Of a stretch of 64,000 bases of DNA, positions 15,812-57,321 are shown piece by piece (positions within the stretch are counted from its first letter, which is position 1; the number at the start of each line of letters is the position of its first letter). The notes beneath the pieces were generated by a model that was not told the origin of the DNA, made no database searches, and was given only the letters and a program-made list of their open reading frames with translations. Source of the DNA: Dudresnaya verticillata (Eukaryota); contig OZ374563.1 in assembly GCA_977862235.1 (NCBI GenBank), positions 124,001-188,000 of the forward strand. Direction: 5' to 3'. A program made the translations under genes and the position numbers.

Positions 15812-15820
15812 TGTGGTGTA

Positions 15821-16668
15821 TGTGGTATAGACGCTATTCGTGAAATGACTCCGTGATCTACGCAAAAATAACCGAGAAATACGAATTTCGAAGTGACTTC
15901 GTGAATGCGCACGCCACGATGGCACACGTATTACAGAGCGCATACTTTGCCAGCGCCACGATGGCATACGCATTATAGCACGCACGTGATACGAAATCGC
16001 TGACACCTCCGGATGAATCCCGATCCGACGTCGTGATCGCGCGCGCCACGATGGCATTCGCATTACAGTGCGCACCCGATACGAAATCGCTGACACCTTC
16101 GTGACTTTCCCGTTCTTTCCCGCGCGTAACGGCACCGCGGCCCACGCGACACGCGCACCTCCGTATGCATCGCTGGCGCACTTCGCAACCGCCACCATAC
16201 GTGAGGCGACCGTTCGTTGGCACCGAGGCCGTTACGAATCATTCGAGTACGAAACCGTCTCCCGCGTTGACGCGTATTCGTGCTCCCGTAGTGCTACTTA
16301 GTAGCCAGTCGTCTGGCACAACCTCCGAGGGTTCCCGGAGAAGCGACTAGCGCCCGGACCTCGGAGTCTTCGGTAAACGCCTGTTTCTTCGAGTTCGGTG
16401 TCTTCGTCTGCGTGACCACGGATACGGTCGAGCCTCGCTTTCGATAGCCCCGCGCACCCGGGGTCATCCCCGGTGATCGATCGCTCGAGTTCTCGCTTCC
16501 GCACACGAATACGTTGACACCGTAGTCCTTCGTGTTGGTCGCTCCGCTCTACCACGCTACCACCCCTTTTCGTTTCTCCGTTAGGCTACGAGGCCATTCG
16601 TTAGGCTCCGAGGCCATTCCTTACAGTGCGAGACTTCCCCGCGTCACCGTGGACTTCGTTATACCACA
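15821..16668 (+). repeat. Element A 5' LTR
   Basis: About 98% identical to 27748-28595 by eye. Internal repeats CGCCACGATGGCA (x3) and GATACGAAATCGCTGACACCT (x2). Confidence 0.97.
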
Positions 16669-16669
16669 C

Positions 16670-16685: not shown

Positions 16686-16739
16686 AACGTGGTCCCGAAG
16701 TTTCGCATTTATTCGTAATTCGTTTCTATCCGAGACACG

Positions 16740-19127
16740 ATGTCTCACGCTCCGAGTCGTCCCGATTCGCCGGTACCGAAACCCGATGACGTACCGATTC
16801 CGGAGCTCCCGTTGTTCGACTCGAACGCGAGTGACCGAGAACCGTTTTCTCGCACTCGCGCTTCACGAATAACGGTACCCGATCTTCGCACAGACTCGCG
16901 TTCGCAGGCTCACGGTAGCCAGTCCGACCTCTCGTATACGTACACTCCGTTGGAAATCGTTCCCTCGGATACCGTCGATCGGCTCTTCTCGATGAAGCAC
17001 GTCTCCGGTTCCGAATTACGTTTACTCTACGAAGAGGTCATCGATGCGCTTTCTACCGCGTACCGTATCACGCAGCTTTCGATTCGTAATACGCACAATC
17101 GAGTTCACGAAGAGTTTAACAATCTCCGCGCTGGCAAGGTCCGTAGGATCGAAGACTCACTCGAGAGTCTCCGGGATCTCGTCTCGGGAGTCAGCAATCG
17201 GTTTCTCGTGCTCGAGCGCAACGTATCCGCCCCCGTGGGCAAGGCGAGTCACTCGCTTCCCGTTCGCAGCTCGCACGCATTCTCCGAGGAACAGTTGAAC
17301 GCTATTCGTGACATCGTGTCCGCAGCGTTACCGAAGTCTCGAAGTCGCGAAGATCATTCCGAAGCCCGTCCTGACCCCCGCAATTCGCCGCTGGTTCAAC
17401 CCGTGCAAGGCCCGGGTGCCCAATCTACGTTACCGAAAAACCCGTATCCGAATCCGTCCCCGCACGCTTTATCGAATCAGGCAACCGATGCCTCCGACAA
17501 CCCCCGTATCAACCCCGCAGTATTCCGAGATTCGCTTCAACAACCAATGTCCCCCGGAGGACCCGTAATCGAAAATACGTTAGCGCTCGCGGGACCCGTG
17601 TCATCGTTCTGGCACTGGGGACCGCTCGAGCCGGGCGTCGAACCGATACCGACGCTCATTCCCGAATTCGCGCGGGCCGTAAGCTATCGATCGTATCGAC
17701 TCACGAATTCGTCACCTCGGGATAATCAACACGAAGTATTCCGAGGTAACACGTCGAAAACCGTTTCACGCATGCGTTCGATGATGCCGAGACTCGAGAA
17801 GTTCACGGGACGCGACCCGATTAAGGTTCTCGCATTTCTTCGTGATATTCGACAAGCGCTGAACGGAGTCGGGCTTTCCGAAGGAGCAGCGGTTCGTACG
17901 ATTTCGTGGTTTCTCGATGAGACCGCGCTCAAGGTGTATCAACACTATGCCTTCGGAGGCGTTCGTACGGGCAACCCGGTTTGCTGGTCCGCGATCGTGA
18001 ACGTGTTACTACAACGATTTCTCACAGAAGACGTAATCGCAGACGCACACGATCGCGTGATAACCACGAAGCAGAAGTCCGATGAAACCGAGATGGAGTT
18101 CGCGACTCGCTTGCAAGGCTACGCGGATGTCTGCTCCGGTGTCTACGATGACTCTTCGTTAACGCACCAGTTTATTCGTGGATTACTACCTACTACGTAT
18201 CCTATCGTGGCCGACCAGGTGCGATGCCTACCGCTGTCCGAGCAGAAGAATTTTATGAGCGTGCAACGAATCGCGCAAGCCGAAGGCACGACATCCCGAG
18301 CTCGCGAACTACGTGACACCGCGGCCCAACAGTCGCGTGATTCGAAGAACCGAGTGTCTCCTACGTACCCGAAGAGTCGCCAAGCGCCCGGACGCACGAT
18401 GCTTATCGAAGCTTGCGACACTCCCGGGAGTGAATACAAGTACCCGATGAACGAAGATCCGCAAATGGCCGTGATGATGATTCGTTCAGGAACCGGGTCC
18501 ACATCCGCTACACCGACTACTTCGACAACGGTCTCCGTGGACGATACGTTAGATCTCACGAGTCGCATCGAGCGTTTCGTACCCGCACGTGTCCCACCGA
18601 TGACCCCGGAGCAAATCGAGATGGCGCGTTCGATGATACCGAAGAATCAAGATGGGTGGCCGTGTTGGTTCTGTCGCGAAATCGGTCACCTCATGTATTC
18701 GTGTCCGTATCTCACGAAGGAGCAAAAACTCTATTGCGCGTACCAGAACTACATGTACCAACTCGAAACGAGACCGTATACGCGTAATAACTTCGTGAAT
18801 CGCGGCGCATCAAGAGGGAATTCGTTCGCGTCCGTTGACAATCGAGGTCACAGTGGACAAGACTCCCGAGGACCACGTGACAATCGCGTGAACCGAGATC
18901 TTCGTCAAGGCGATACGCGCTACCCGAGGGACCGAGCCCAGCGTCAAGTCAGCTTCGAGCGTCGAGGGCCGCCGACCGTCCTCCGCAATCCGAGACACGC
19001 GCAGGCCCCGGGCCGTCAACCGGTTCTCGCAGTCCGTGAAGACGTTGATGCGATTGAGCCGAGTCACCCGAACCTGCCCTCGGAGGCTTACGAAGACTCC
19101 GCGAACAACGGAAGAGGTGATCGATAA
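16740..19127 (+). CDS. gag: Gypsy Gag (795 aa) with CCHC zinc knuckle
   Basis: CWFCREIGHLMYSC knuckle, KQKSDETEMEFATRL major-homology-like region, and position just after the PBS. Confidence 0.9.
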   Translation: MSHAPSRPDSPVPKPDDVPIPELPLFDSNASDREPFSRTRASRITVPDLRTDSRSQAHGSQSDLSYTYTPLEIVPSDTVDRLFSMKHVSGSELRLLYEEVIDALSTAYRITQLSIRNTHNRVHEEFNNLRAGKVRRIEDSLESLRDLVSGVSNRFLVLERNVSAPVGKASHSLPVRSSHAFSEEQLNAIRDIVSAALPKSRSREDHSEARPDPRNSPLVQPVQGPGAQSTLPKNPYPNPSPHALSNQATDASDNPRINPAVFRDSLQQPMSPGGPVIENTLALAGPVSSFWHWGPLEPGVEPIPTLIPEFARAVSYRSYRLTNSSPRDNQHEVFRGNTSKTVSRMRSMMPRLEKFTGRDPIKVLAFLRDIRQALNGVGLSEGAAVRTISWFLDETALKVYQHYAFGGVRTGNPVCWSAIVNVLLQRFLTEDVIADAHDRVITTKQKSDETEMEFATRLQGYADVCSGVYDDSSLTHQFIRGLLPTTYPIVADQVRCLPLSEQKNFMSVQRIAQAEGTTSRARELRDTAAQQSRDSKNRVSPTYPKSRQAPGRTMLIEACDTPGSEYKYPMNEDPQMAVMMIRSGTGSTSATPTTSTTVSVDDTLDLTSRIERFVPARVPPMTPEQIEMARSMIPKNQDGWPCWFCREIGHLMYSCPYLTKEQKLYCAYQNYMYQLETRPYTRNNFVNRGASRGNSFASVDNRGHSGQDSRGPRDNRVNRDLRQGDTRYPRDRAQRQVSFERRGPPTVLRNPRHAQAPGRQPVLAVREDVDAIEPSHPNLPSEAYEDSANNGRGDR

Positions 19128-19207
19128 ACCTCCCCATTGGACGCGGACGCTCGCAATTCGGATTCTAGTTCGAGTTCGGAAAACGAGTAAAGGCGAAGAC
19201 GCCCGTT

Positions 19208-22200
19208 GTGTCACGTACTTCGTCTGAATCCGTTCCCCGAGACACCCCGCGTATTCCGATTCCGAGGGCCGCTGCGATGCGAAGGAAGCGCGCTGCACGA
19301 CGACGAGACCGAAAGCGATGTCGAGTCCTCGCGAAAGACGCTTCGTGCGAAAACAATTCGAAGAAGATACCGATCTCGAAGATCGAACTCGAAGTTACCA
19401 CCGAGGGATACGTTTGCTTGATGACTTCGGGGATCTTCCTCGTGACCGGGTCCATTGCCCTCGATGCCTCCGTAATGACGCCGCATACGATTGCAGTCGA
19501 TACGTGTTCCGGTTACAACCTAATAGCCCGGGCTGCGTTACCCACCGGTTGGGAAGCGAACGCGTCCACGATGGAATCAGCTCCGAGGCTCGCGTCCGCT
19601 GATCGCACCCCGTTGCGACTCGATGGTATCGTTTACCTGACAGTCCGCCTTGGGAACGTTCGATACCGCGTACCCTTCGTGGTTGCGGAGAAACTCGCAG
19701 TCGATGTTCTCCTTGGAACTTCGTGGATGGACGCGCATTTACGAAGCATCGAGCTCAGCCCACGGAGGCTCATCACGAAGAGTGAAAGCACGATTCCGAT
19801 TATCAATCGCACTGCTGGATCTGCTCAGCCCGCAATTAATTCGAAAAATCCGAAGCAAAAAACCGAGAAAACGCTATCGAAGCGACGTCAACGCGAGCTC
19901 CACGATTGGGACCGAGACACCCGTACCATTCGTTTGAACCGCCGCGTCACCATACCGAGTTATTCGCAGAAGCTAGTCACCGTGACCTCGGAAGCACTCG
20001 GACTAATTCATATCGAACCGAAGCCTTCGTTACAACACCGACACGGAGTACGGTTAACGAACGGGATACACGAAGTCAGCCCGAATCGCGAGTTTTCGGT
20101 GTTGATAGCGAACTTCACGGATAAGCCTCGAGCCCTACCGAAGGGAACCGTCATCGGATACGCAGCTCGAAACCCGCTCGCAATTCTGACACCCGATCGC
20201 GAAGTCGCGGATTCGCTTTCCAAGGTGCTCAACATCTCTACGCTACGTGAGCACAACGACTCGAAGTCACCCGAAGAATCCGTATCCACGAAGGAAAAAC
20301 CGCTCACGAAGGGCGCCGCGACTGCAGCAGCAGAAGCCAATTCGAGTTCCCGCGATTGGGAAGAACGCGTAGATCTTTCGAACATACCCGACGAAACTAT
20401 GCGAAACGAGGTCCTCGAGATGCTACATAAGCACGAATCGATGTGGAACGGAGACCTCGGAACGATCGCAGCCACGGAGCATCGGATCGATCCACAACCC
20501 GGGACTCGACCTATTCGTTCGATGCCCTACCATCAAGGGCCTGCAATACGTGAAATCGTCCGTAACGAAATCGACAGTATGCTCGAAGCCGGAGTTATCG
20601 AACCAGCCACCTCGGAGTGGGCGTCCCCCGTAGCCCTCGCACCGAAGAAAGACGGAACACTTCGTTTTTGCGTAGATTACCGCAGACTCAATACGAAGAC
20701 GCTATCCGACGCGTACCCACTTCCCCGGATGGAAGATTGTATCGATTCACTCGGAGACGCTTCGATTTTCTCGACACTCTATTGTAACAGCGGATACTGG
20801 AAGATTCCGGTTGCCCCGGAAGACCGCGATAAGACTACGTTTACTTCGTTTCTCGGAACTTATCGCTATCTTCGTATGCCCTTCGGATTGAAAAACGCAC
20901 CCGCTACGTTTCAACGCGCACTCGATATCATTCTATCCGGAGTCCGTTGGCAGTGCTGTCTCGTTTACCTCGATGACGTGATCGTTTTCTCCGCAAATCT
21001 TCGTGAACACATCGCGCATCTCGATCAAGTTCTCACGCTACTTCGTAACTCCGGGGTTTCGCTCAAGATGAAGAAGTGCTTCCTCTTCCGAAAACGAGTC
21101 GACTATCTCGGACACGTAATTTCCCCGGGGAAGCTGAGTATGGCCGAGAAGAGCTCCGAAGCATTCCGATACGCGAAGTTCCCGAAGACACTCACGCAAG
21201 TCCGTTCGTTCCTCGGCGCGTGTAACGTATACCGAAGATTCGTGAAAGACTTCGCGAAAATTGCGCGACCATTGACGAACATGACGCGAAAGGACGCGGA
21301 TCCCGACTACGAGAATCCCACGGAGGATCAGGTTACCGCATTCGAAACGCTCAAACGGAAGCTCGTGTCACCGCCGATACTACGGTTACCGCAACTCGGG
21401 AAACGTTACATTATCGATACGGACGCGTCTGCGTATCAACTCGGATGCACGTTGCTACAGGAGCAAGATAACGAAGAATTCCAACCCGTGGGCTACTGAT
21501 CGTATTCGTTAAACGATGCCGAGAAGAACTACTCCGCAACCGAGCGCGAGTGCTACGCAGTCGTTTGGGCGGTTACTTCGTTGCGTCCGTATATCGAAGG
21601 GACCCGGTTCACCGTGCGTACGGACCACGATGCGCTCCGATGGCTTCTTTCTCTCACCGATTCGTCCGGGCGACTCACGCGATGGAGGTTTCGCTTAGCC
21701 GAATTCGACTTCGAAATCGTGTATCGCCCCGGTCGCGTCCACCAGATTCCCGATTCCCTCTCGCGATTGCTACTTCCGCATCGCGAACAGCCCGCAATCG
21801 ACGACGAAGTTCCTACGTTTGACTCGGATCAAATTGCAGCGAAGAACGAAGAACGTTTCCCCAACGACATTACGAAAACCATCGAAAACGAAAGAGACCC
21901 GGTTCTCATTACTACGCGATCCCGCAAACGTCAATCGAAGCCCACCGCGATTCGCCACGACTCTACGCGAAAGACTACACCCGCCACACGCGTACATCGA
22001 GCAGGCACTACGCCACGACCCACGGAGGTCACCACGGGTTCCGAACCCCACCATCATACGTGCCACGAAGGCTGCCAACAACACGACGCAGAACTACGTG
22101 ATGAATACGCAGGCCAAAAGGATGTCTACGATGACTGCGACTTATGGGACTATATCGATGACGATGATCCGTTTGACCTTTATCGAATTGACCCCAACGA

Positions 22201-23797
22201 AGAACCGAGTGACCTCACCGACGTGAAACCCGTGGAACTCCCTGCGCCGATTACGGTAACCGAAATCCTCGAAGGACAACGTATTGATTCGTTCTGCCAA
22301 ACGGTGCAATCACGACAATCGAAAACGAAGGATATTCTCTTTCACGAAGATGGAGACGGTCTCCTGCGACGAACGCACCCAACGATTCCGAAGCTAACGC
22401 AAATCGTATTGCCCGAGACGCTCCGACCTCGCTTGCTCACGCTGGCGCATCATTCGTTACTCGCTGGCCACCCGGGGCAAAATCTTATGTTCTACTCGCT
22501 TCGTGAAACGTATTACTGGCCTTACATGGCCGCCGATATCGCATCCACTGTTCGTAACTGCAAACATTGCGCAAGGAATCGAATCCGTCTCCGAAGGAAT
22601 CTTCATCGCTTGAAGCTCTTCCCCGCTACGCGCCCACTCGAATCGGTCGCGATTGACATCTTAGGCCCGTTTCCACGAATGAAATCCGGACGCAAGTTCA
22701 TTCTCGTGATTACGGATCGCTTTACGAAGTTGACCCAGGTGGCCACACTACGAGTAATAACCGCGTATCACGTGGCCGTTACCTTTTGCGAAGTTTGGAT
22801 ATTCAAGTACGGACCGCCAGTCTCGGTGCTCTCGGATAACGGGAAACAGTTTACTTCGAAGTTCTTTCAGGGCGTCTGTCGCTTACTCGGGTTATCGAAC
22901 GTATTCACTTCCGCGTATCATCCGCAAACGAATGGACAAACCGAACGCTATAACCGCACTATCCTCGCGATGCTTCGTAACTACGTGAACGACCACCAAA
23001 ACGATTGGGACCGCTACGTTTCCGCGTTAACGTATTCGTACAATTGCCACGTTCATCGGTCTACGAAGACAACTCTGTTCAATCTCGTTTTATCGCGACC
23101 GCCGCCCGAGTTCACCGTGAAACATCGCTCCCGAAAGCATCGCTCAAAACCCACGGAGGACCTTCGCAACGATTTCGTTAAGCGACTCGATTTAGCAATC
23201 GACTCCGCACGCACTTCGTTACAGCGAGTTCAGAATCGTTACAAACGCGACTTCGATAAGCGCATCCGCCACATGAAGAGCGGCGTCAAACCCGGAGACT
23301 ACGTGTACCTCGATACCCACGATGGGAAAACGAAACTTCCGAAGCTGAAATCCCCCGCGGAGGGGCCGTACAAAGTGCTCTTCAACGATACGCGTACACT
23401 CGTGATCGATCGCAAGGGCCTCGTCGAACGCGTCTCCGCGGAATGCTGCATCTACGCGCCACCCCCTACGAATACGCGACCGTCGATTACGCGACCCGAA
23501 GACATTGTGGAAAAGGTCAACGAAGGCCCCGAATACCTTGTCGATCGCATCCTCGCTCACTCGACCGACGAAGACGGGAAATTCGTGTTTCGTATCAAGT
23601 GGGACGGCTACGCGACGCCTACGTGGGAACCTCGTACGCACGTGCCCGAAGAACTCGTTTCGCGCTACTTCGCAAGGCTTCGAAGCCAAGCGGACCCGCG
23701 TGATCCCGTGCTACTTGCCCACGAATGGCTCTCCGACTGGGACCCCGAGTTGTTCCGTGGCCCCGACTTCGCAATCCGCACCCCGCAGCCCGAATAA
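19208..23797 (+). pseudogene. pol: Gypsy Pol (PR-RT-RNaseH-IN-chromodomain) with one in-frame stop
   Basis: Motifs VDTCSG, FCVDYRRLN, YLDD, DTDAS, HHCC, DILGP/SDNG/TER, GPY, and chromodomain EYLVDRIL...IKWDGY..PTWEP. TGA at 21497-21499 replaces W. The first catalytic RT Asp reads Y (STLYCNSGYW). Confidence 0.95.
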
Positions 23798-25077: not shown

Positions 25078-26985
25078 TTACGAGCGACCATACAGGTTTG
25101 CGGAGTCGTAAGGCGGATTATCACGAGGATCGTTTCCGTTCTCGTCTCGAGTCACGCGAAGAAAGTTCGGCGCATACGGATCCGATGTCTGCGATTGTCC
25201 GCGGTGACCATCGTAACCGTCGCCACCGCTGGGTCCGAAGCCCGAAGGGCCTCCGGAGCCAGACCCGTAACGCGGAGCATCGTAACTCGGGTAACCGTAA
25301 TCTTCGCGGCGACGCTTACCGCTCAACTCGAGGTCGCGAATACGATGACGAAGGTCCGCTATCTCCGCATCCCGATCACGAAGCTGCCTACAAAGGCGAC
25401 TCACCTCCGTAACCGCGCGAAGGAAACTTCCGCCGAGATCGTCCAGCAGTTGTCGAAGAGTCCCATCGGGGGAGATGCCCGCTTCGCGACACGCATCGCT
25501 CACGGAGTCGAGACTGCGAATATCCGTAGAGCGCATCTCGAGTCTCGCGATCGAAGACCCCGAAGCACTCGGCACCAACGCGACAGCCCCGGTGCCAAGA
25601 GATGACCCCGGAGTCAGCGACGACGAAGGAACCGGAGTTACAGAACGAGGTACGCGCGGCAACGGCCCAACCTCACCTCCGATGGCACGAACCGCGGCAC
25701 TCGGATGCGAAAACGGATCAACTCGCGGACCGCGCCCTCCTCGTGACGGACGGTTGTGGCGCCAATCGAACCAGGCCCCGGAGCCCACGTCGTGTCCGAC
25801 CAGTTGGGACCACTGTCCCGTCGGAAAATCGCGACACGTCGACTGGAGCTCCCTCCGATCTGCAGCCTCGATGTCAATCGTGAGTATCTTCGTGAACGGC
25901 ATCGCGCTATCCGAGCCCCGGAGCGAAAGATCCGGATACCCGCCATCTTCGGAGAACGACTTCGACCAACGATCACGAACGAAACTACGCAACGAAGCAT
26001 TGAGCACCCATACGTATTGACGCTGCGTGACATCTGAAATCAACACGCGACCAAGCTCGAAGCGATATTCGGAATCCCGGAAACGCACGAAGCACTTCTT
26101 CGAAGGTTCCGCGAACAGGTCGACCACGAGCCCGAAATAACGAATCACCCTCGGAGGTGGCACGACTAAGCCCGCGGGGGCCCGAATACACGAAGCATCG
26201 AGCCAGAACGAACTCACAAACATGCTCAGAGGCACGCGGTCATCGAGACGCGAATTCGTATCCACGCGATCAGGCATCGAGCCCGCGCCACGGAATAGCG
26301 CCCAGTCTCCGGCACCGATGTGCACTCCGAGGATGCGCGAAATCGAGTCTACGTGACGCCATACGTTTCCCGCGGCGGACTCGAACTCCGGATAATCACG
26401 AAAGCGAGTAATCGACACCACCGGAGAGTCCACGGAGATACCCGCACCCGGTTCCAGGAGCACGTGCGCGCACGCATCTACGTAAGCAACCTCGTCAACC
26501 GTGGTCACGTAGGAGACGTCGCACGGAAGACCCATCGGAGTCGGATACACGGGGCCACGGGGCCAGAATACGTGAAATACGCCAGCTCCGTTATCGTCAC
26601 GACCCTCGCACAGTGCACGAAAACGAGCGAGATCCGGACGAACACGGCCATCGTAGGCAGCAACCTCTTCGTGAGTAACTCCGGAGACCGCGAGCTCGTC
26701 CCACGCGAAGTGCAGCTGCGCAGACGGAAGCCTCGGAGCACTCTCATCCTTAGTCCCGAATTTCGGAGGACCCAACGAAGCACTCGGCTGCCAACCCCGA
26801 TTCACGAATTGCGGATTCGAGCCGCCCGAACTTACGAAAGGGCTACCGCGATCCGTGATCCCTGCTGACTCCGAGGCCCCGATATCCACAACGTGTGGAA
26901 TCGCGAGAGTCCGCGGTACGTATTCGGAGTCACCACCCGAAGGGCCCGCAACATCCGAAGAAGGACCCGAAGGCTTCGGAGCCAA
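25078..26985 (-). CDS. Antisense accessory ORF of element A (at least 635 aa, unknown function, C-terminal coiled coil)
   Basis: Long uninterrupted ORF between pol and the 3' LTR, homologous to ORFs in B, C and D. The annotated start is TTG. The probable true ATG is at 27089 (MSDTGHEEG), with a frameshift near 27050. Confidence 0.8.
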   Translation of the reverse strand: MAPKPSGPSSDVAGPSGGDSEYVPRTLAIPHVVDIGASESAGITDRGSPFVSSGGSNPQFVNRGWQPSASLGPPKFGTKDESAPRLPSAQLHFAWDELAVSGVTHEEVAAYDGRVRPDLARFRALCEGRDDNGAGVFHVFWPRGPVYPTPMGLPCDVSYVTTVDEVAYVDACAHVLLEPGAGISVDSPVVSITRFRDYPEFESAAGNVWRHVDSISRILGVHIGAGDWALFRGAGSMPDRVDTNSRLDDRVPLSMFVSSFWLDASCIRAPAGLVVPPPRVIRYFGLVVDLFAEPSKKCFVRFRDSEYRFELGRVLISDVTQRQYVWVLNASLRSFVRDRWSKSFSEDGGYPDLSLRGSDSAMPFTKILTIDIEAADRRELQSTCRDFPTGQWSQLVGHDVGSGAWFDWRHNRPSRGGRGPRVDPFSHPSAAVRAIGGEVGPLPRVPRSVTPVPSSSLTPGSSLGTGAVALVPSASGSSIARLEMRSTDIRSLDSVSDACREAGISPDGTLRQLLDDLGGSFLRAVTEVSRLCRQLRDRDAEIADLRHRIRDLELSGKRRREDYGYPSYDAPRYGSGSGGPSGFGPSGGDGYDGHRGQSQTSDPYAPNFLRVTRDENGNDPRDNPPYDSANLYGRS

Positions 26986-27734
26986 CTGACCCGCCGTAGC
27001 AGCCGCGAGCTCGCCATCGAGGCGGCGACGAACGCCCTCCGCACGTTTCCCTGGGACCCGGTTCCCTCTTCGTGACCCGTGTCCGACATCGTTACTCGAA
27101 GCTCGTCACGAAAAACACAGCAACCCACGGAGGAACGAACGCGAATCTCGACGAGGCCCTCACGAACTCCACGAAGGACCAGCCGCACTTGCCCCAACAC
27201 CGAGACCCACGACCCGCAACCGGCTATCGCAAACCACCGAGGCCAACGAAGCAACAACACGAACGCCACAGAGCGGAGTGAACGATGCGCGAAGAGACGC
27301 GAAAGGACGCACCAGCGCACACGAAGAAGCAAACGAACCGCGAAGACCGAAAGCCAAGGAGCTGAAGCGAGTTGTGCGTGTGCGCGATGACCGGAGAAGC
27401 AAGGGGCTCGGACCCAGCGCAACACGAAGTTGAAATAACCCACGCGGCTCGTGACCCGTCTCCGTGATCCGCGCGCGCACGCGTCGACGGACGGCGCCGC
27501 AGCCCTAACCCATTCTACGTACGCGAAAATATCTTCGTGATTAGCCAATACGAAGGCGCCATCGCACATGTGATCCGAATTCAAATTCGTAAGCCCCGAG
27601 GCACCGTTGCCCGACATCGTGAGCTCGAAGCAATCTACGCGCCGCCACTCGGATGGCTCCACCCGCGCTCCACCGAGGGAAACCGGGCCACGCAATTTCG
27701 TAATTCGTAGCCCGCGACCGGGACGTTCGCTCTT

Positions 27735-27744
27735 GAGGGGGGGG
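27735..27744 (+). promoter_or_regulatory. Polypurine tract of element A
   Basis: GAGGGGGGGG, 3 nt before the 3' LTR. Confidence 0.9.
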
Positions 27745-27747
27745 CCG

Positions 27748-28595
27748 TGTGGTATAGACGCTATTCGTGAAATGACTCCGTGATCTACGCGAAAATAACC
27801 GAGAAATACGAATTTCGAAGTGACTTCGTGAATGCGCACGCCACGATGGCACACGTATTACAGAGCGCATACTGTTAGCGCGCCACGATGGCATACGTAT
27901 TACAGCACGCGCGTGATACGAAATCGCTGACACCTCCGGATGAATCCCGATCCGACTTCGTGATCGCGCGCGCCACGATGGCATTCGCATTACAGTGCGC
28001 ACCCGATACGAAATCGCTGACACCTTCGTGACTTTCCCGTTGTTTCCCGCGCGTAACGGCACCGCGGCCCACGAGACACGCGCACCTCCGTATGCATCGC
28101 TGGCGCACTTCGCAACCGCCACCATACGTGAGGCGACCGTTCGTTGGCACCGAGGCCGTTACGAATCATTCGAGTACGAAACCGTCTCCCGCGTTGACGC
28201 GCATTCGTGCTCCCGTAGTGCTACTTAGTAGCCAGTCGTCTGGCACAACCTCCGAGGGCTCCCGGAGAAGCGACTAGCGCCCGGACCTCGGAGTCTTCGG
28301 TAAACGCCTGTTTCTTCGAGTTCGGTGTCTTCGTCTTCGTGACCACGGATACGGTCGAGCCTCGCTTTCGATAGCCCCGCGCACCCGGAGTCATCCCCGG
28401 TGATCGATCGCTCGAGTTCTCGCTTCCGCACACGAATACGTTGACACCGTGGTCCTTCGTGTTGGTCGCTCCGCTCTACCACGCTACCACCCCTTTTCGT
28501 TTCTCCGTTAGGCTACGAGGCCATTCGTTAGGCTCCGAGGCCATTCCTTACAGTGCGAGACTTCCCCGCGTCATCGTGGACTTCGTTATACCACA
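27748..28595 (+). repeat. Element A 3' LTR
   Basis: Direct repeat of 15821-16668. Confidence 0.97.
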
Positions 28596-34414: not shown

Positions 34415-34427
34415 CTGGACCCATAAC
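34415..34427 (-). promoter_or_regulatory. Copia PBS GTTATGGGTCCAG (half tRNA-iMet type)
   Basis: Abuts the 5' LTR. Confidence 0.8.
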
Positions 34428-44320: not shown

Positions 44321-46816
44321 TCAGTTGCCCGGCGCCTTGCCAAGGGGCAGCCGGGCCAGAAGGGCCCGGAGCGTACGACTGCATCGCTGAATCGACGCAT
44401 ACCCCGTCGGGGGCGGCTGGTACTCCTCGCGAAGCCTCTTGCGCGCCGGCGCATAAGACATGCGCTGGACTTCCCCGCGGAGCCTCTGCACCTCGCGGGC
44501 AAAGCCGTCCCGCTCGTCGCGGTATCGAACCGCGACGGCATTGGAGGCGTTGACGTCCTCCTGCAGCGCCACTGCGCTCGATGCCAGGGCCTGCAGGAGC
44601 GTGCGTGTCGACACGCCTTGCCCGACGCGCGCCAAGGAGGCCGCGCTGCGTGCAGTCGGATCGGCCCAGACTGCCGCACTCACCTCCTCGTCCAGTGGGT
44701 CGACCACTGGAGGAGGTGGGACATAAGCCACCGCCGGCGACCCAGACGGGGCCGGCGGGGGCTGGTACACCTCAACGGCAGCGGCCGGAGGGGCGCGGGC
44801 CGTCGACGGCCCCCCAACAGCCGGTCCGCCGACTGCCGCAGGGGCGGCTGGCGCACGACGCGCGGACGCCCTTGGGGGCGGCGGGATGTATGACTCGGTC
44901 TCCGCCGCCATGACGGCCGCGGCTGACCCAGGGTTAGCACCCACGCCACGATGGCGACGACCGGCGCGCTCAGTGCGGGCCATGGCGGCCATCGAGGCGA
45001 ACCCGGAGCGCTCGACGCGCTCCCGCCGGTCACGTGCGCCACGATTGCGCTGGAGCCTGTAGAGGGCCCCTGTCTCTGGCAAGAAGCCACACACGAACGC
45101 GTCGACGCGTGAAGAGAAGTGACGCCTCCGCGTGTGCTTCTCGGTTGCCGCAGCCACTCGGCGGACTACGCAGAGTAGCTCTCCGAACCCAAAAGACGTG
45201 CCATCCGAAGAACGGAGCAAGTATGGGAAACACGGCCTCTCGCTTGACCAGCCGGTCGCGAGGAAATTAATCAGGCGGGCGTCGAAGACCCAGCCTGTCC
45301 CCTTCGCGAGGAGCTCGATGCAGTAGCGGCGGCCCACCTCGAAGGCGTATTCATCTGAGCACCTAGCCAGGAGCTCACGACGAGCAGCTACGCCACCGAC
45401 TGTCGCGTAGTGGAAATACCGGTCTACGGTTATCCACGGGATAGTGAATCCCGATGGCGTCTCCCGGTGGGAGTACCACTACGCTGATGGGAACCAGGCC
45501 GCGTCGAGCGCTGGATGCAACTTGCACCCCTTTGACGGGCGTCCTTCGCCCGGGGCCTTGCACACGTCCCAGTCCCGCTCCCCGAAGCATACCCCAAAGA
45601 GGCGGCGCGCAGAGTCGGCATCGGCCAGACGGTGCGCGAGGTCCACGGGCTCGTCGACGGGCACCGTGCGCATCTCTGAGATGGTGGCAGGCAGGGGCGG
45701 GGCCCACTCATCGGCGGGTGTCAGGAAGAGGGCATCGGCTGCCCTGTCCACCCGCCGAAGCTCCTCAAGGGAGGCGACGTAAGAAACGTCGCAGGGTAGC
45801 CCCAACGGCGTGAGCCAGACTATGGCGTCCGCCGGGAGGAAAGCGGCATAGGCTGCCGCCCCTCCGTCCACGCTCGCGTGGGCCACCCTCAGGAGCCGCC
45901 GGACGTCTTCCCGAGGCTCCTGCAGCCCGCGCCACTGATCCAGCGGGATCTGGTGGCGCGGCGCCCCCCAGGCGAAGACCGTCTCGGTCGGGGGCGCGTG
46001 CTGTCCAGGGGGCGCCTGGCCCATGAGGGGCGGTCCGACTGAGACGGACACCCCAACAAGAGGCACGACGGGCGCAGCGGTGGACTCACTCACGCCCGCG
46101 GCCTCCCCCTCTGCGTTGGCAGAGGCCACGGGAGACGGCGTCGGGGCCGTCGACGGCCCCAAGCCACTAGAATCGCGCGGGACAAAGGGTGCCGCCGCTG
46201 CGGGGACTTTCTCCGACCCTGATGGCGTGGGTGACCTCGACGGACTCAGGTCGAGCACCCTCGCCACCATCGGCACCGCGGAGCGCGAAGGCTGCTCCGC
46301 AGGTGCCCCTCCTCGCGTCGACGCGGGTTGATTGCTTTGAGCCGTAGGCCCTGCGCGAGGCGGGCCAGTCGGCTGAAAGACCCGAGCCGCCGCTACTGGG
46401 CGCGGGGCGGCAGAGGCCGCCCCACTCGGGTCCTTCACTCTCTCGCCCTGCGTCGCGGCAAGGGCCACCGCCTCTGACCAGACGTCAGCGGCGGGCGTTG
46501 GGGTGGGGTTGGCGTCGACGCCACCCGCCCCGGCGGAAGAAGCCGGCGCAACAGCCCCGGCCTTGCCCAGCGCACCCGTCGATGCGGGCGCTTCTTCTGG
46601 CACAACCGTCGAAGGTTGCGCCTCTTCTGTAGCGACCGTCGAACGTCGCTCTGCGGTTGGCGCGGCCGTCGAAGGCCGCGCCTCCCCGCCAGCCAGCGCC
46701 CTTGGCACCGGCCCGGCAGGCCCACCCCCTACGACTGACTCAGTCGAGGAGGTGGGCTTCGTAACCGGCGCCCCCTCGGCGGGGGCGCCGTCCGCGATCG
46801 GTTCGCGTGACTCCAT
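44321..46816 (-). pseudogene. Antisense accessory ORF of element C (one in-frame TAG at 45479-45481)
   Basis: ORFs 45479-47314 and 44321-45337 share one frame. Likely ATG at 46816 (MESREP). TPLGLPCDVSYV and EYAFEVGRRY match the element A ORF. Confidence 0.8.
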
Positions 46817-47148
46817 CGCCGCGTCGACGCTGGCAATGGGGGAGGAAATTGAGAGCGTCGAAAGCTTGGAGCGTATGGCAATGGTCGACAGGCAGCTGTA
46901 CGCGTGGGGGAGGGAGTGTTGGTGGTCGTGGTGAGCGATGACCAGACCACCCACCCCTCGGAGCCGCAGAGGCGGCTCCCTAAATAGCCCGTCGCGGCTC
47001 AGCGCGGGCACACCCGACGTGGCATCGACGCCCGTCACCGACGGACGCCCGGGAGCCCGCTGGCCAATCCCGGGCGCCGTCTTGGCCACCCCACAGCGTG
47101 CGCGTTGTAACGGTCGCGACCGAGGCGTTCGCGCTTGAGGGGGGGTTG

Positions 47149-48089
47149 TGTGGCATAGCTGTAAGACCAGCTGTGCCACGCACGCGCAGCTGTAAGACCA
47201 GCTGCGCCACGTGTGCACGGCCGTGCGCACGCTGTCAGCCGGTGGCGCCGAAGCCCCGCTGAGCTGTAAGGAAGTGCGCAGTGGCGCGCGCAGCTGTAAG
47301 ACCAGCTGAGCCACGTGTGGACTGCTGTGCGCACGCTGTCAGCCGGTGGCGCCGAAGCCCCGCTGAACTGTAAGGGAGTTCGCAGTGGCGCCCACGTGTA
47401 CACGCGTTCGCGTGTGACACTGAAACTCCCATCTAATATCTACGTTTATTGTTTTCTAAGTGTACAGCACCCTCTAGTGTAAGCGGCGGTCGAACGCCCT
47501 GCTGTCCCGCGCGCTGTGCACACGCACTCCGGCGCAGAGCCGTTGAGTGCGTGACACGCGCGCGCGCACTCCGGCGTCGAGCCGTTGAGTACGTGTGGAC
47601 CGTTCCGCATACGCGCGCCCCCGGGTTACCGTTACCCGTACCTGTCGACGCGTGTTGGGGCGCGCCGGCGCACCTCCCGGGTTGGTGCCGCCGCAGGCCC
47701 TGTAGTATATCTAGTATTCGCCCCTCTGGGCTTCAGTAAACCAGGCAAGCCAGCCTACGCCAGGCTTGCCCTTTCTGCTTTGGGTTTCTTTCCCAGTCCT
47801 TCGCCCCACGGCTTCCCTCTTTCCCTAGCCGTCTACGCTTTCCTTTTCCTTTCCCTACCGTCGGCTTCGTGCCGCCCCACGACGGGGACGCAGGGATCCG
47901 GCCGCTGCCGCCCGCGTACGGTACGCCCCGTGCGCGCTCAGGCTTCGACGCCGTTGATCCGCGACCGTCGACGGCGCGCGCGGCCGACACCACCGCTCTA
48001 CCACCACAGCTACCACCCTTCGACGGGTCTGGGTGCGACTGATCGACCAGCGCAGCTAGACGTCAGTTCGACCTGACGTCTATGCCACA
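47149..48089 (+). repeat. Family C 3' LTR (941 bp)
   Basis: TGTGGCATAG...CTATGCCACA. Internal AGCTGTAAGACCAGCTG repeats and an about 105-bp tandem duplication (47187-47395). Confidence 0.9.
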
Positions 48090-50746
48090 GTGACGGAACA
48101 CTTCGAACACCTTAAGGAGGTCCTCACGCTACTCCGTTCCGCAGGTGTAACTCTGAAGTTATCAAAGTGTGCCTTCTTCGACACTTCCGTACAGTATCTG
48201 GGCCACATAGTGCGCCCGGGCCAACTAGAAGTGGAACGGAAGAATATTCTCGCCGTTAAGGAGGCTAAGCCACCTACAAACCAAACGGAGATGCGCTCTT
48301 TTCTAGGATTATGTAATGTCTATCGACGCTTCGTTCCCAATTTCGCACGCATTGCTTCGCCACTCAATAAGAAAACCGGCAAGGGTCTGGTATTCGAGTT
48401 TGGAACTCTCACCGAAACGGAGTTTAACGCCTTTGAGGAGTTAAAGAGACACCTAATCTCTCCTCCAATATTGGCTTTACCCCGCCATGGTTTCAAGTAT
48501 ACATTGGACACCGACGCTTGTGATTACCAAGTTGGGTGTGTCTCCTCCAGGAGCAACCTAGTGGAGATAATCTACCAGTGGGTTACTGGAGCCGAAGTCT
48601 AACCGATGCGGAGAAGAATTACACAACCACCGAAAAGGAGTGCCTTGCTGTAGTTTGGAGTATGCTAACGCTACGCCCCTACCTTTATGGTGAAAAGTTT
48701 ATACTCCGTACGGATCACGACGCATTACGCTGGATATTGAGTCTAGCCGATGCGTCTGGACGTTTAGCAAGATGGCGCCTACGCCTATCGGAATTTGAGT
48801 TCGAAGTACAATACCGCCCTGGTATCAAGCACCAACTCGCAGACGGTATGTCAAGACTCCGAACAGGTGGTGCTGACAAAGCTGAATTGGATGAAGAAGT
48901 ACCTTGCTTCGTTATGGAATCGACTCCTAATGGTGTAGTGCAACATGGTGTGCAACTAACCAATTGGAAACAGACCCAGCAGTCTGATGCCGCAAGCAGC
49001 CTTGTCCTAGGCGTTGAAAGTGGAGACAACGAAACGGATACTACGCCTGAAAAGGATACAGTACCACCCACTCCACTCCGGCAAACAGTTATCCAACAAG
49101 AGGATATGCGCAATGAAACCCTTACCCGTGAGGAGTTCATAGCCGTGCAAGCAACAGATACTTTCTGCAAGCTCAAAGCCGAATCGGTGGGATCCCCTGG
49201 ATCACAATTTGACTACGACCGACATGGGTTTCTCGTGCGTAAATCTGCCCTCGACGGCGCACTCCAAAAGGCAGTACCGCAACAGATGCGCGGCAGGGTC
49301 CTGTATCTTGCCCACTAAACCTTGATGTCGGGACACCCTGGTGGAATTAAGATTTACTACACCTTACGGAGAGACTACTATTGGCCACATATGGCTAACG
49401 ATGTATTCGAGACCGTTCGGAGTTGCCGCTCATGTGTCAAAACCAAGGGCTCGCGGTTTAAGCATCAGAAGTTCATGAAGCTATTTCCCGCGAGTGGCCC
49501 ACTGGAGTTTGTCGCTACGGACATACTAGGCCCGCTGCCGAAAACCAAACGGGGATACGTCTTTGTATTGGTCATCACCGATCGGTTTTCTAAGCTAACA
49601 CGGTGCATTCCGTTACGGACGATTACAGCCGTCGTGGTGGCGAACGCATTTTTAGACCATTAGGTGTATGCGTATGGCGCACCTAAATTTGTACTCACCG
49701 ACAATGGAAGACAGTTCACGGCGAAGTTCTTCGACGCTGTCTGTGCCCTACTCGGAGTGCGGCATTTGCTGACCGCTGCCTACCACCCGCAAACCAACGG
49801 GCAAGCCGAGCGGTTTAACAAAACCATCGCGCAGCGTCTTCGACATTATGTCGAGGATCACCACACCGATTGGGATTTATACCTACAGCCGTTAACTTAC
49901 TCCTACAATATGCAGGTACACAGGATTACGGATACTACTCCCTTTGACTTGGTGTTAACTCGACACCCATCGGATATTATTGTGCGTGGCACCCCTGTGG
50001 AGTTGGAAGAAACCGTTACGGAGGGGCGTATGACGCCCGTACTCCAAAAACGGGGAACCATGCGGCGTTTGCGTTATGCCCTACAGAAGGCGCAGACCAA
50101 ACAGACTACAGCCCAGTTGAAGTCCAAGGCCTTATTGGACCGTAAGGTGCGTTTCCGACCGGTGGTTCGCCGTGGCGATCAAGTCTACGTAGATCGCCCG
50201 CCGCGTAATCTAAGACCCACCGAACGGAAGGAACGCGAGCGATTGGGTCAAGGCCCTGACCACGTCGGTGAATTTGCGGAGCAAATGAAGAAGCTCCTCC
50301 CAGGATCGACGGGCCCCTACGAGGTGCACACCGCAACGGATACTGTAGTCACTATCAAGAAAGAAGGCGTCCTGATTCCCATCAGCATCGATCGCATCAC
50401 TAAGGTACCAATTGGAGTTCCCGTGCAACCGGCACCGCTATTGGCTCCGCCAGTTACGCCACACACCGACATGGACGGTACAGTACCCCAACAGGCGGGA
50501 GGCACCACAGTAGTACCCCAAACACCAGGTGGTATTACTGTAACGCCCCAAACGCCAGGCGGTATGTCAGCCCCCGTGCCGGAGACAATTGATGCCGACA
50601 CGGAGTATGTCATCGAGCAGATCGTGGGACACCGCGAAGAACCCACGGGCATGACCTACAAGGTGCGTTGGTACGGCTACCCACCAGACCAAGACACGTA
50701 TGAACCCGCTGAGGAGTTGCCGCAAAACTTCATACACCGCTATTGA
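48090..50746 (+). pseudogene. pol: Family B Pol C-terminal half with chromodomain
   Basis: RSFLGLCNVYRRFV, DTDAC, HHCC, DDE, GPY and EYVIEQIVGH...YKVRWYGY...DTYEP motifs. Frameshift near 48543. Stops at 49316 and 49661. Confidence 0.93.
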
Positions 50747-51189: not shown

Positions 51190-54063
51190 TTACACCGCAT
51201 TTCGTGGACGCTTCGCTGGCGGCCCCAGGTCAGCCTCGGTATCCTCCTCTTTCGCCGCACTCTCCTCCAAGTCGGGAATATCCTCACCATACACCCTTGC
51301 GGTAATCATGGTGAGTCTCCTACCGGTGTCTGCCATGCGACGACGCAAGGCGCGAATGGTGTGCCGCAGACGCGCCAGACGCCCGACCCACAGCACTGCG
51401 GTGTTAATGGCCTCGTTTGCCGACGCTGGGAGCGGCATACCCGCGGCCCTACACCCTTCGCGGAGTCGCTGCAGCGCAGCCCCATCGACACGCAAATCCG
51501 CGTCGCACCACGTCGACATTTCCGCATCGGTGTCCTTCTCCTCCTTTACCGTGACGGAGTCGGTAAGCCTTGCCGCGGTACCATCTGGATCCAAGGGCGT
51601 GACGCAGACGACGGAGTCACTGGACTCTGTCGACACCGGTTTGGCAACTTCACCCCGCTTCGGTATAGGGGCCTTCACTGCTCCTCCAGACCGTGTGTTC
51701 GCAAGTGCCTCCACTTGGTCAGCCCTCACCGGTGTAACGTCCTCTTCCATCTCGGAGTCTTCTTGTTCCCCGACGGGGTCCAACTTCGCCGCGGCGGCAG
51801 CTACTACCGTGGGCTTCTCACAAACTACCGCTACGGTATTCGCCGCCTTGTCCAACTTGGTGTTCTTGTTGACCCCCGGCGAGACAGCCGGTTTCGAAGC
51901 CCCGATTGGTGTGGATGCTGCGGCCACCCCCGACAAGCCCCCCTGTGCCTCGATCTCCGCTCCTACAGGAGGAGACTCCGTTACGGTCTTCTTGGGCGAC
52001 GAAGTCGTGCGGTCGCCCCACACCTTTATGGCTTCTCCACCAGGAGATTCTCTTGGCACAAGGACCCTTGGGTCCCCTCGCACCTTCCCAATCTCGTCAA
52101 CCCCCACTGGTGTAATCTCGTCAGCAGGCGGACCGTCGAGGCGTCCCTGTTGATGCAGCACACCGGATGGAGTACCCCACTCGCGCGACGGCGGAGCCCT
52201 TGAAGGCCCCTCCGTCATGGGGTAAAACCTTGAGTGGGAGCGCATCGCGTGCCAGTTTGACATCTTCTCGTCGATCAACCACGCCGGCTCGGGGTCTTCT
52301 TCCGATAGGAAATACGCCATGCCACACCCGGGGTTGAGCGACGGCATCGACAACACGCGATCGTCATCCCAATGATAACCAACGAATCCCGGTGTTCGCT
52401 CCCAGTTGGTGTCTGCGTGAACTGCGAAGAGACGCTCCACACGCGCCAAGGGGTATTCGGTCCCCTCAACCAACCGGTCTACTCCAACTTGGTGTATAAG
52501 GGTAACCATCGGCCCTGGTAGCTTGAATATGCGCCCGCACTCGCCACCTTCCGGATCCGTTCTGCTCCGCGGGTACGCCCTCCAGTCGGTCATTTTGGTA
52601 TTGGCTCTAACACCCCGGTAGGTGACCTGTAACCAGGAGAAGAGGACTAACATGGCCCATTCCGCTCGGAGTATCCGACCCAACACCGTCATCAGCGGAT
52701 GTTCGACTGACTTCTCTCAGCCTGGGTGTGCAGCTTGCCAGTCATGATGCTGAATGAACCGATTAGAGAAGTACGCCACCACAGTCGGCGTTGGCACTGA
52801 CAACCAACGGGTGACTTCATACTCAGCCCACCAATCCGGAACGGTGCAGTACAAGTGACGATGCGCCCCCGGCGGCACCTGGAAGAATTCATTTGTGTTC
52901 CAAGTGTGGAGTATCGCCCTTCCGAGTCGGCGTCCATCTCGACTCCGCAACCAGAGTCGATGCTCTTTCGCCGCGTCGTCAGCCCACCGTTGCGGATTCC
53001 CAAACCAATGAACACCTTGGTCATATGGTTTTTCGTAGCAAAGGAAATCGACACCAACCGGATGATCTCGCAGTCGATGGGCCATGGCCAACAATCGACA
53101 CACCTTATCGGGATAGCCCTCTTCTTCCTGACATCTCAACCACACGATGTCACACCCAAGTGGAGTTCGCACTCTACAGTTTTAGTGAATCCACCTGGCT
53201 CTCCACATCTCCGCACGCCGATTCGGGAACCACTTGTTGTTGATTAACCCACCGGCGTCTGTAAAAGCACTGTAGCGACGCCCCTCGAGGGTTTCACCAT
53301 AGTTGGAAACGAACACCGATACGGGCATGGGGAGACGCACCATATCTCGCTCCTCTTCAATACGCTGACGTCGCCCGGTGCGGTGGTCATACTCCCGGCC
53401 CGGCCAGGTCCCCTCATCGGTGTACCCCGTCGAGTCCACACGCCCGTGGTAACTCCCCGGTGTCCCCGGCGCGTATGGAAGTGAACCCGACGGTCCGCCG
53501 CCGACACCCATGTGGAGTGGGGGTGAGGTTACTCCAGTTCTCCCATGCCCTACCTGGAGACCCTGCGTGTACGCCTCATATCGCCAATGCGGAGTTGTGC
53601 GACGATAACCACCGAGCTCCATCTCCATGTTGCCCTTTGAAGGATCGGGTCATTGTGCCCCGGGCCCTACCTGTCGATCCGGAAGCGGAGTGGGCGTCTG
53701 GCGAGCCTCGCCATCATCGCGCCGGCGCGGAACACGCGGGCTACCCGCGCGTGCTGGCAGCATCGGCGTTGTGCTCGCTGCCACCACAACTCCAGATATG
53801 GTGTCCACATGTCCGCCTCCTTCTCCGTCTTCTTCATCCGGCGCAGGAGCCGCCCCCACCGATGGTGTACGCCGCGTTGGTTGAAAGGGGGCCCGTGCGC
53901 TGTCAGTGTTACCGCCCACCATCGCTAGTGGCACACCGGGCTGGACTTGCACGTTGGTCGACTTGCCCGAAGTGGAGTGCACCGATGAGGTTTGCTCCGT
54001 TGTTGGATACACCTGAGTGGATTTGTAGAAGACGTGCCGAGGCGCACGAGGACGTGGCGCCAT
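51190..54063 (-). pseudogene. Antisense accessory ORF of element B (ancestrally about 957 aa, three in-frame stops)
   Basis: ORFs 53650-54063, 53182-53628, 52717-53172 and 51190-52692 are all in one frame, separated only by single stops. The ATG is 15 nt from the LTR. Confidence 0.85.
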
Positions 54064-54078
54064 TTAAGTAGGGGGGTC

Positions 54079-54753
54079 TGTGGTGAAGCGGCCGTTTCGG
54101 AGTGCGGACGACGGTTGAGCCGACCCGCGGCCGGCGCACCGGTGAGCTGGCGCCAAAAGCCGAAGCGGAGTGCAGTGACACAGTAGCACTGTATGCCCTG
54201 CTGGAGTCTGCGCGCACCACCAATAGGAGCCAAGTAGTTTATTTATTTGTAATTAGGTAATTATAATCATGCTGTACAGTACGTAGTGTCAGCCGGCCAA
54301 TGAGAATGCCGAGCATGTCCGCAACGGTGACCGGGACCAGTAGGGCCGGACCCACCTGGTGGACCAGACCCATTGGGGTCTGGCCCACACGGACCGGACC
54401 GCGGGGCGTATCTCCCAGTATATTAATGGGTGGCCACCGCGAGTCCTACAGTAAACGGGTGCGCAACCCTGGGCAAAGTGACTTACCCTAAGCCTTACCC
54501 TCATACTCCTTTACGGTTTCCCCTCGCCAGTCCCGTGCACGGATTCCTCTTACCTCCGTCCCGGTGTAGCTGTCCTGGCACTGTACCGTCCCCCTTGTCT
54601 GTTGCGTCCCTTTACTCCTTACAGGTGTTGCCGCTCGAGGTACTCCCTTCGGTCTACGAACTAAGCTCTACCACCCCGGTGCCGTGTGAGATCACTCCTT
54701 ATTGGGATTGCCTGATCAGCTCTCCTTACAGGTGTGCCTTTCACTTCACCACA
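54079..54753 (+). repeat. Family B 3' LTR (675 bp)
   Basis: TGTGGTGAAG...CTTCACCACA. Reverse complement of solo LTRs 151-825 and 33013-33687. Confidence 0.95.
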
Positions 54754-56484: not shown

Positions 56485-57321
56485 TTAATCCGATGATAGG
56501 TCGATGACCTCGTCCTCGCCAAGAGGCGGGTCCGGCTGTGGAGCCGTATGAGAAATGACGACACGAGCCACTTCGCGTATCATGCGCCGCCCACGACCCA
56601 AGCGGCGGGAAGCCTGACCGATCCCGGTCCCCGCTTCTTCATTGACATCCCGACTGCCAGTCGCTGTCGCATCGATGTACATAACGTCTAAGCCGCTCGT
56701 TAATACACTGCTTGCAGCGGGCAGGACCTCGTCTTCCTCCTTGACGACTAATTCCGTCTTGACAATCACGTCGTCCGAGGAGGTTGCGACCTTATTCGCT
56801 TGAGAGGCGCCATTCTGCCCGTCGACATCGAGCTTTGAGCCCTCGGCTTCCTTATCCTGTGACACAGGTACAACTGCAGCAACCCCGGTCAACTCTCCCT
56901 CCGTGGCTTGAGAGCCCCGGCGAGGGAAGTCAGCCCCGAGGAGCTCGCCCACGGGGGCGAAGCCGGGTAAACCCGTAGTTGGTGCCCCAAGGGTCGGAGC
57001 CCCGACTGTTGCTATCGCAGTAGAAGCTGAGACGACCGCCATCGAAGGCGTGGTAACAGACTTAACAGCTGTAGCTGTGGTCTGCACGGCGGTGTCGGAC
57101 GACTCCTCACGCGGAATCGCCGCAGGATTGTCAGTCGTGGTAGTTCGGGGATCCTTTTCTTCGACTGCAGTCGACTCTTGTTTGATGCCAGGCGCACCAG
57201 TGTGGCCAATATCGCGACGCGGCTTCACGTCCCCAACCCGCGAACGGCCCGACAGAAAAGGAAGGGCAGCGAAGTGAGCCGACGCTCCATCTCGTCGGCC
57301 GGACCCGGCATCTACAACCAA
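56485..57321 (-). CDS. Low-complexity acidic/Ala-Thr-rich ORF, probably the frameshifted C-terminal tail of ORF D
   Basis: Overlaps the stop of 57312-59021 on the same strand. Composition resembles the tail of the B antisense ORF (VKEEDE vs VKEEKD). Ends EDEVIDLSSD. Confidence 0.5.
   Translation of the reverse strand: MVVDAGSGRRDGASAHFAALPFLSGRSRVGDVKPRRDIGHTGAPGIKQESTAVEEKDPRTTTTDNPAAIPREESSDTAVQTTATAVKSVTTPSMAVVSASTAIATVGAPTLGAPTTGLPGFAPVGELLGADFPRRGSQATEGELTGVAAVVPVSQDKEAEGSKLDVDGQNGASQANKVATSSDDVIVKTELVVKEEDEVLPAASSVLTSGLDVMYIDATATGSRDVNEEAGTGIGQASRRLGRGRRMIREVARVVISHTAPQPDPPLGEDEVIDLSSD

Follow-up and report, generated by a model that had tools for sequence, protein, structure and literature searches.

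A conserved antisense gene of chromodomain Ty3/Gypsy elements in Dudresnaya verticillata appears to encode a new protein family

Chromodomain-bearing Gypsy elements in a 64,000-nucleotide stretch of Dudresnaya verticillata DNA (contig OZ374563.1, positions 124,001 to 188,000; hereafter the window, whose own numbering is used throughout) carry, on the strand opposite to gag-pol and next to the 3' LTR, what is almost certainly a real accessory gene maintained by selection. The genetic layout is a known one found in a new carrier lineage, and the protein family that it holds is apparently undescribed. We tentatively propose, as possible rather than probable, that the product is a nuclear factor that keeps the chromatin of the element permissive against host silencing. 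A first-pass annotation of this DNA had counted four copies of the gene, which is overstated: two copies are certain (ORFs A and C), one is probable (ORF B) and one is possible (ORF D).

Element A, which carries the first of these copies, comprises the following features:

15821..16668, plus strand: 5' LTR, 848 bp, with TG...CA ends
16719..19127, plus strand: gag (Pfam Retrotrans_gag, E 5.5e-6), with no internal stops
19169..23797, plus strand: pol, with RT-RNaseH-integrase-chromodomain by Pfam scan
25078..27105, minus strand: antisense ORF A, 675 codons from stop to stop
27736..27747, plus strand: polypurine tract (PPT)
27748..28595, plus strand: 3' LTR, followed by the TSD GTGTA at 28596-28600

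Element A is a complete chromodomain-bearing Ty3/Gypsy element. Its two LTRs are 97.8% identical over 848 bp, the 5-bp TSD GTGTA is also present at 15816-15820 before the 5' LTR, and a PBS-like site starting with TGG lies just after that LTR. The Pfam scan gives the gene order gag, RT-RNaseH-integrase and C-terminal chromodomain (Chromo, E 1.2e-6), with ORF A downstream of the integrase, and pol contains one in-frame stop in 1543 codons. The best PDB relatives of pol are Ty3-type RT chains, and the closest named relatives of the integrase are Chondrus crispus proteins (53-56%), which makes a red-algal host likely.

Neither a chance ORF nor the shadow of a sense gene accounts for ORF A, as these are ruled out by the other five frames of the locus, which have 7-22 stops each, by Markov shuffles of the pol-LTR spacer, none of which reached 675 codons (0/300, maximum 401), and by the codon-position pattern given below. 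From its N-terminus, the protein consists of a disordered arm, a folded core (approximately residues 115-461, nt 25723-26763), a helical or coiled-coil module, the basic motif GKRRRE and a tail with DPY. The gene had earlier been drawn as a single frame at 25078-27089, but the ATG at 27089 is out of frame with the long ORF. The first in-frame Met of the latter is residue 191, within the conserved core, and there is none upstream of the core, so that damage close to the 5' end of this copy is probable, unless splicing or an alternative start is used. The highest 19-residue hydropathy is 1.24 in A (0.9-1.8 overall, and no more than 1.83 in 12 proteins of the family), values low enough to leave no evident transmembrane segment; together with the antisense orientation, they rule out an env-like ORF.

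A clear homologue of ORF A is found in the remains of a second element:

44321..46816, minus strand: antisense ORF C, with Met at 46816 and one in-frame stop at 45479-45481
47137..48089, plus strand: PPT (47137-47145) and 3' LTR (47149-48089) of element C

What is left of element C in the window is the ORF, the PPT and the 3' LTR, its own gag-pol being absent. Family-B sequence lies on both sides of this remnant, an inverted gag-pol on one and RT sequence on the other: the 3' end of ORF C abuts the inverted gag, and the RT sequence comes directly after the 3' LTR, which has 10-bp inverted ends. By blastp, A and C match at 28% over 358 aa (E 2e-22), with a score (z 37.8) reached by none of 500 shuffles, and their similarity in DNA amounts to one 54-nt match only. 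Over 311 aligned codons, identity at the three codon positions is 0.45/0.51/0.32, a pattern typical of constraint at the protein level. The proposal that this is a conserved accessory protein under such constraint is borne out for A and C by the codon positions, and also by 25 outside relatives and a confidently predicted fold, both described below.

The two remaining ORFs lie further along the window:

49664..50746, plus strand: C-terminal part of the element B integrase, with chromodomain (Pfam Chromo, E 8e-11)
51190..53649, minus strand: antisense ORF B, first Met at 53628, in-frame stops at 53182-53184 and 52717-52719
54069..54753, plus strand: PPT and 3' LTR of element B (LTR at 54079-54753)
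56485..57327: low-complexity ORF overlapping and following ORF D
57312..58766, minus strand: ORF D, intact, open up to 59027

In line with the first description, ORFs A, B and C lie just inside a G-run PPT that is followed by a TGTGG...CCACA LTR, A and B stand downstream of chromodomain integrases, and the LTRs of the three elements cannot be aligned, their common matches being of 26 nt at most. The elements are not unrelated, however, as had been supposed: A and B share 50% in RT, 31% in integrase and 28% in gag, and represent related families. The quoted peptide blocks and the basic motifs GKRRRE, RKRLRE and PPAKRPR are all present in the translations, but the colinear similarity said to join the four proteins is strong for A and C and not significant for A-B (z 2.1), A-D (z -0.2), C-B (z 0.6) or C-D (z -0.9). 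B and D are weakly similar to each other (E 0.004, z 5.0; 57909-58154 in ORF D).

Profile comparisons bring ORF B nearer to the family. With three profiles built without it, B is the next match in the six-frame window after A and C (iE 0.012, 0.028 and 0.015), over about 52610-52870; its hmmsearch score is reached by 0/300 shuffles and its hhalign score (P 0.00055) lies above 60/60, and it was missed by a profile of the C-terminal module. ORF D alone obtains iE 3-31 in hmmsearch, a score reached by 18 of 300 shuffles, then iE 0.35 with B added to the profile; in hhalign (P 0.009) it too stands above all 60 shuffles. Once D joins the profile, B rises to iE 5e-5, and the family against an alignment of B and D gives E 0.002 with a probability of 14%. 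The segment matched in B and D corresponds to the second and third of the peptide blocks quoted in the first-pass annotation, and B, D and the outside relatives have EW where A and C have EY. Judging from these similarities, ORF B is probably a distant member of the A/C-type family, and for ORF D we consider the chances of such membership to be evenly balanced.

The idea of an antisense family borne by Gypsy elements is upheld by A and C, receives a weaker profile match from B, and is weakest for D, which may lie outside any Gypsy element. D is an intact ORF and lacks the basic end motif, as stated, but it gives no significant match alone and its setting is different: a motif scan of its surroundings found no PPT-TG motif and no LTR, there is no integrase, and an LTR displaced beyond the window is possible. 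Next to D are a GTPase-like ORF and, at 59026, a CACTA-like terminus with an inverted-repeat array beyond it. An AlphaFold model made for D and B was uninformative (pLDDT 31).

Outside the window, the A+C profile was run over 1.84 billion protein representatives and retrieved 25 proteins at E<=0.001, nine of them at <=1e-10 and the best at 3e-30, all from ENA or Logan assemblies. Seven of the 25, and the cluster member P0157, are long, start with Met and contain the whole core and the C-terminal module. The long relatives share a layout of disordered N-arm, core, helical or coiled-coil module and low-complexity tail, and ten long cores are 17-41% identical. A family tree of 18 rows, from which short fragments, B and D were left out, has 4 well-supported inner branches out of 15, and A and C fall together in a group that is loosely resolved.

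The closest relative of ORF A is P0157 (747 aa; 30% over 577 aa, E 2e-44, 157 bits), and those of element A pol are P0037/P0159 (61-68%). For both P0157 and P0037/P0159 the record gives an ENA contig 21,821 bp long, the sole exact match of length found by eye when 35 rows of the family were compared with 120 of integrases. The evidence that P0157 is linked to a chromodomain-integrase pol is thus circumstantial, and a stray match is possible. The same length joins the top-ranked relative of the ORF with that of pol. Compared with the pair P0157/P0159, element A is 30% identical in the ORF and 61-68% in pol, and this difference bears on whether the protein is a cofactor of the pre-integration complex, acting in nuclear import or in the choice of site together with the chromodomain integrase. 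The NLS-like motifs would suit this role, as would the linkage to such integrases that is seen in A and B and is probable for the contig of 21,821 bp; the role has been discussed for other antisense proteins of this class (PMC7264820). Nevertheless, the ORF diverges much faster than pol, the integrase already has a chromodomain of its own, and D may lie outside any Gypsy element, all of which makes a cofactor quite unlikely.

The core of ORF A is modelled with confidence (pLDDT 89.5, pTM 0.88), as a predicted domain of about 330 aa whose fold is unmatched among the solved structures searched. Fold searches of the PDB and of a viral library gave no match, which does not in itself prove a new fold, and the ESM Atlas gave no usable match for the core of A or D. 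With a confident prediction and no structural neighbor in these libraries, the domain is by itself a target for structural work. For the sequences of A-D, no Pfam family scored above cut-off. Among 27 members, Pfam produced four single-member matches only (E 0.004-0.008), three of them to coiled-coil families; NCBIfam, with 11 proteins, yielded one weak match far below cut-off, and a PDB sequence search with the A+C profile yielded none at E<=10. The earlier statement that the domain has no name is sustained for A and C in Pfam, NCBIfam and PDB sequences. No similarity to known chromatin domains was seen by sequence or by fold. Protein searches by word index, whether ORF A or an alignment of 17 sequences was the query, found nothing, a limit of sensitivity, as relatives do exist there, and locus searches in metagenome, viral and prokaryotic genome contigs confirmed no relative. 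One locus from a degenerate motif scan (L001) was discarded as a bacterial chance match of 16 residues (iE 0.08) within an unrelated gene region. In the literature covered, no antisense ORFs are described in red-algal Gypsy elements; Repbase and GyDB may already contain them. On these comparisons, the protein family appears to be new and its layout known.

The conserved residues of the core allow two further functions to be weighed. Arginines and aromatics (R52, R57, R153, R168, W31 and W164, in model numbering) would be expected of an RNA-level factor, whether one that suppresses small-RNA silencing or a Rev-like one for export or packaging, and retroviral accessory proteins do act in this way (PMC7264820). 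Against this, no RNA-binding fold was matched in the PDB or the viral library, and the core is not consistently basic: in 10 A/C-type proteins its net charge varies between -9 and +9, a spread that gives no consistent basic DNA-binding signature. Action on RNA is thus quite improbable. The conserved acidic residues (D54, D92, E101, D106, D163 and E242) could instead belong to an enzyme of new fold, working for example on nucleic acid or chromatin marks, and enzyme-like accessory genes are found on red-algal transposons (10.1101/2025.02.11.637652). Such an enzyme is very unlikely, given that there is no invariant column over all 27 alignment rows, no Cys/His cluster among the conserved columns and no enzyme fold matched.

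It might also be argued that the ORF plays no part in transposition, being either a host gene that was captured or a neutral passenger. Its genomic context does come from this window, with a single 21,821-bp coincidence outside it, and each of the three LTR-linked copies found here seems to be damaged. Yet elements whose LTRs cannot be aligned carry the ORF in the same antisense position, all 25 relatives have sources that are neither named nor annotated, and the fold has been kept despite deep divergence. We therefore regard a mere passenger as extremely unlikely.

The layout itself has precedents. In A and B, each with one copy in the window, a long ORF lies antisense to gag-pol between pol and the 3' LTR, which is the arrangement of the aORF-3R class, comprising Grande, RIRE2, Retand, PvRetro13 and the fungal Boty, and whose function is called unknown in PMC7264820. 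The family resembles the members from maize (Grande gene23), rice (RIRE2) and Silene (Retand), as well as PvRetro13, in position, orientation and the long pol-to-LTR region, and also in having coiled-coil-like parts and a proposed nuclear role; the Grande antisense protein is nuclear and its gene has its own promoter (PMC7264820). Retand differs in being a non-chromovirus lineage of flowering plants that mostly encodes TRP28 (PF04195), present in 97% of Retand clusters (PMC11963269), whereas the family described here accompanies a chromodomain integrase with red-algal relatives. TRP28/Transposase_28 was considered and rejected, with no match in A-D at E<=1 or in the 27 members at E<=0.05. [quoted passage not shown] We thus apparently have an independent example of antisense ORF in another lineage, with a foldable domain, conserved residues and intact homologues such as P0157, that bears on the role of antisense extra ORFs in LTR retrotransposons (PMC7264820). 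Boty differs in its fungal host, none of the 25 family relatives is a named fungal protein, and brtn was compared by description only.

Beyond plants and fungi, a parallel exists in HTLV-1. Its HBZ is a small bZIP-type protein, with no homology to the family, which has a folded domain of about 330 aa. The likeness is that HBZ is a nuclear protein whose antisense gene lies near the 3' LTR (PMC11963269), and by a similar logic the protein here, or its antisense RNA, could be a self-limiting regulator that dampens transcription or replication of its own element, as a form of copy-number control. Antisense genes with a proposed regulatory role, in retroviruses and plants, have this same position and orientation (PMC7264820, PMC11963269), and a coiled coil with a basic motif would suit a dominant-negative partner. 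However, there is no similarity to Gag, bZIP or transcription-factor families, and a 330-aa folded domain exceeds what an antisense RNA or a decoy would need; self-limitation is, in our opinion, unlikely.

A precedent for countering host silencing is provided by VANC, borne by eudicot DNA transposons called VANDAL and acting through hypomethylation. The family described here differs in residing on retrotransposons and in having no Pfam match; what it shares with VANC, a model for counter-silencing, is to be an accessory protein encoded by a TE (10.1101/2025.02.11.637652). Element A has no CpG depletion (o/e 1.5-1.7) and other repeat pairs have an excess of CpG transitions of only 2-3-fold, so a DNA-demethylation route of the VANC type is little supported. 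In the red alga C. merolae, TEs are silenced by H3K27me3, and red-algal DNA transposons bear putative chromatin-modifying accessory genes (10.1101/2025.02.11.637652). Our results bear on the silencing of TEs in seaweeds and their escape from it. PAG1-3, the Plavaka accessory genes of red-algal EnSpm/CACTA elements (10.1101/2025.02.11.637652), are also red-algal, TE-borne and mobile, and D is adjacent to a CACTA-like terminus with an inverted-repeat array. Still, they have been described from DNA transposons and not as antisense genes of Gypsy elements; PAG1, for which that source gives no known domain, and PAG3 were compared by description only, and identity with PAG2 (methylase/SET) is excluded by Pfam. 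The words 'antisense' and 'chromodomain' do not occur in the main text of that source.

In the counter-silencing reading that we tentatively prefer, the antisense gene would be transcribed separately from its own promoter near the PPT and 3' LTR, by analogy with maize Grande gene23. By analogy too, the protein would oligomerise through its predicted coiled coil and its core would recognise the DNA or chromatin of the element itself, while the repeated DPY motifs of the tail would recruit a host factor. Entry into the nucleus would rely on the predicted NLS-like basic motifs, and the product would then act on element chromatin, countering host silencing. Nuclear action is likely, on the two grounds of the basic motifs and the analogy with Grande GENE23. 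In A, C and P0157, a basic motif comes after the coiled coil; its place varies among members, and the pattern used finds none in two of eight outside proteins scanned. Counter-silencing is supported by these motifs after the coiled coil, by an ORF that diverges faster than pol, by the repeated tail motif and by the precedents of Grande gene23 and the Plavaka accessory genes; the variable charge of the core, the lack of a recognisable chromatin domain and the little sign of CpG methylation go against it. The fast divergence of the ORF fits weak constraint just as well as an arms race.

A more ambitious version would have an ancient superfamily with a new fold, antisense across a red-algal clade of chromodomain Gypsy elements, divided into A/C and B/D subfamilies and moved to other elements or to the host genome (as D), that opposes Polycomb-type repression through a host protein recruited by DPY; taken as a whole, this is a long shot. 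The DPY motif, noticed before it was counted and hence post hoc, occurs 11 times in ten C-terminal arms, one of which (P0014) was wrongly cut by the profile, against 0.4 expected. Six of these ten arms carry DPY and four do not.

The remnant element C, recognised by an antisense ORF and a 3' LTR, is enclosed within 38306-50746 by two oppositely oriented copies of Gypsy family B (38372-40654 versus 48086-50368, 96%), and the end of the C ORF enters the inverted B gag (42990-44771) in frame, which yields a chimeric frame of 593 codons. Two short duplications in these elements are comparable to the tandem arrays found in the pol-3'LTR regions of Retand, a plant Gypsy lineage that also carries antisense ORFs.

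50842-50999, tandem duplication, 85-bp units, directly past B's integrase
47183-47391, tandem duplication, 104-bp units, inside C's LTR

The LTR of element B truncates the 3' end of a neighbouring gene, which consists of two in-frame ORFs with one stop between them. Next to it lies a low-complexity ORF whose composition resembles that of B's disordered arm; this ORF may be the frameshifted tail of D, the possible distant member of the antisense ORF family.

54741-56108, minus strand, P-loop GTPase-like gene (Pfam MMR_HSR1, E 4e-5; AIG1, E 0.01)
56485-57327, minus strand, low-complexity ORF, 280 codons, 16-nt overlap with the end of D

Beyond D, the stretch 59026-64000 probably represents the left end of a DNA transposon of the EnSpm/CACTA (Plavaka-like) type. 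Neither of its ORFs has a Pfam match; the first contains a YWPALV motif reminiscent of Tudor/PWWP domains.

59026, CACTA-like terminus
59220-60089, tandem array after the terminus, units of 24/71/95 bp, many inverted repeats
60196-61965, plus strand, first ORF right of the array
62921-63931, plus strand, second ORF right of the array

Family B also left a solo LTR in each copy of a duplication, where it adjoins the putative gag of a Copia element.

1-3387 and 32863-36249, 3.4-kb duplication, 99.5%
151-825 and 33013-33687, B-family solo LTRs
29240-32131, minus strand, pol of the same Copia element

Two paralogues of a small protein sit inside a more extensive inverted duplication (5539-8103 versus 10382-15025). 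Each has a signal-peptide-like start, a segment that is basic and rich in Cys, SP repeats and an end likewise rich in Cys; neither matches Pfam.

6536-7366, plus strand, paralogue 1
about 11446-12763, minus strand, paralogue 2, inverted relative to paralogue 1

The chromodomain Gypsy element A (15821-28595) is unusually CpG-rich, with an observed/expected ratio of 1.5-1.7 versus 1.14 for the window and about 1.05 for elements B and C.
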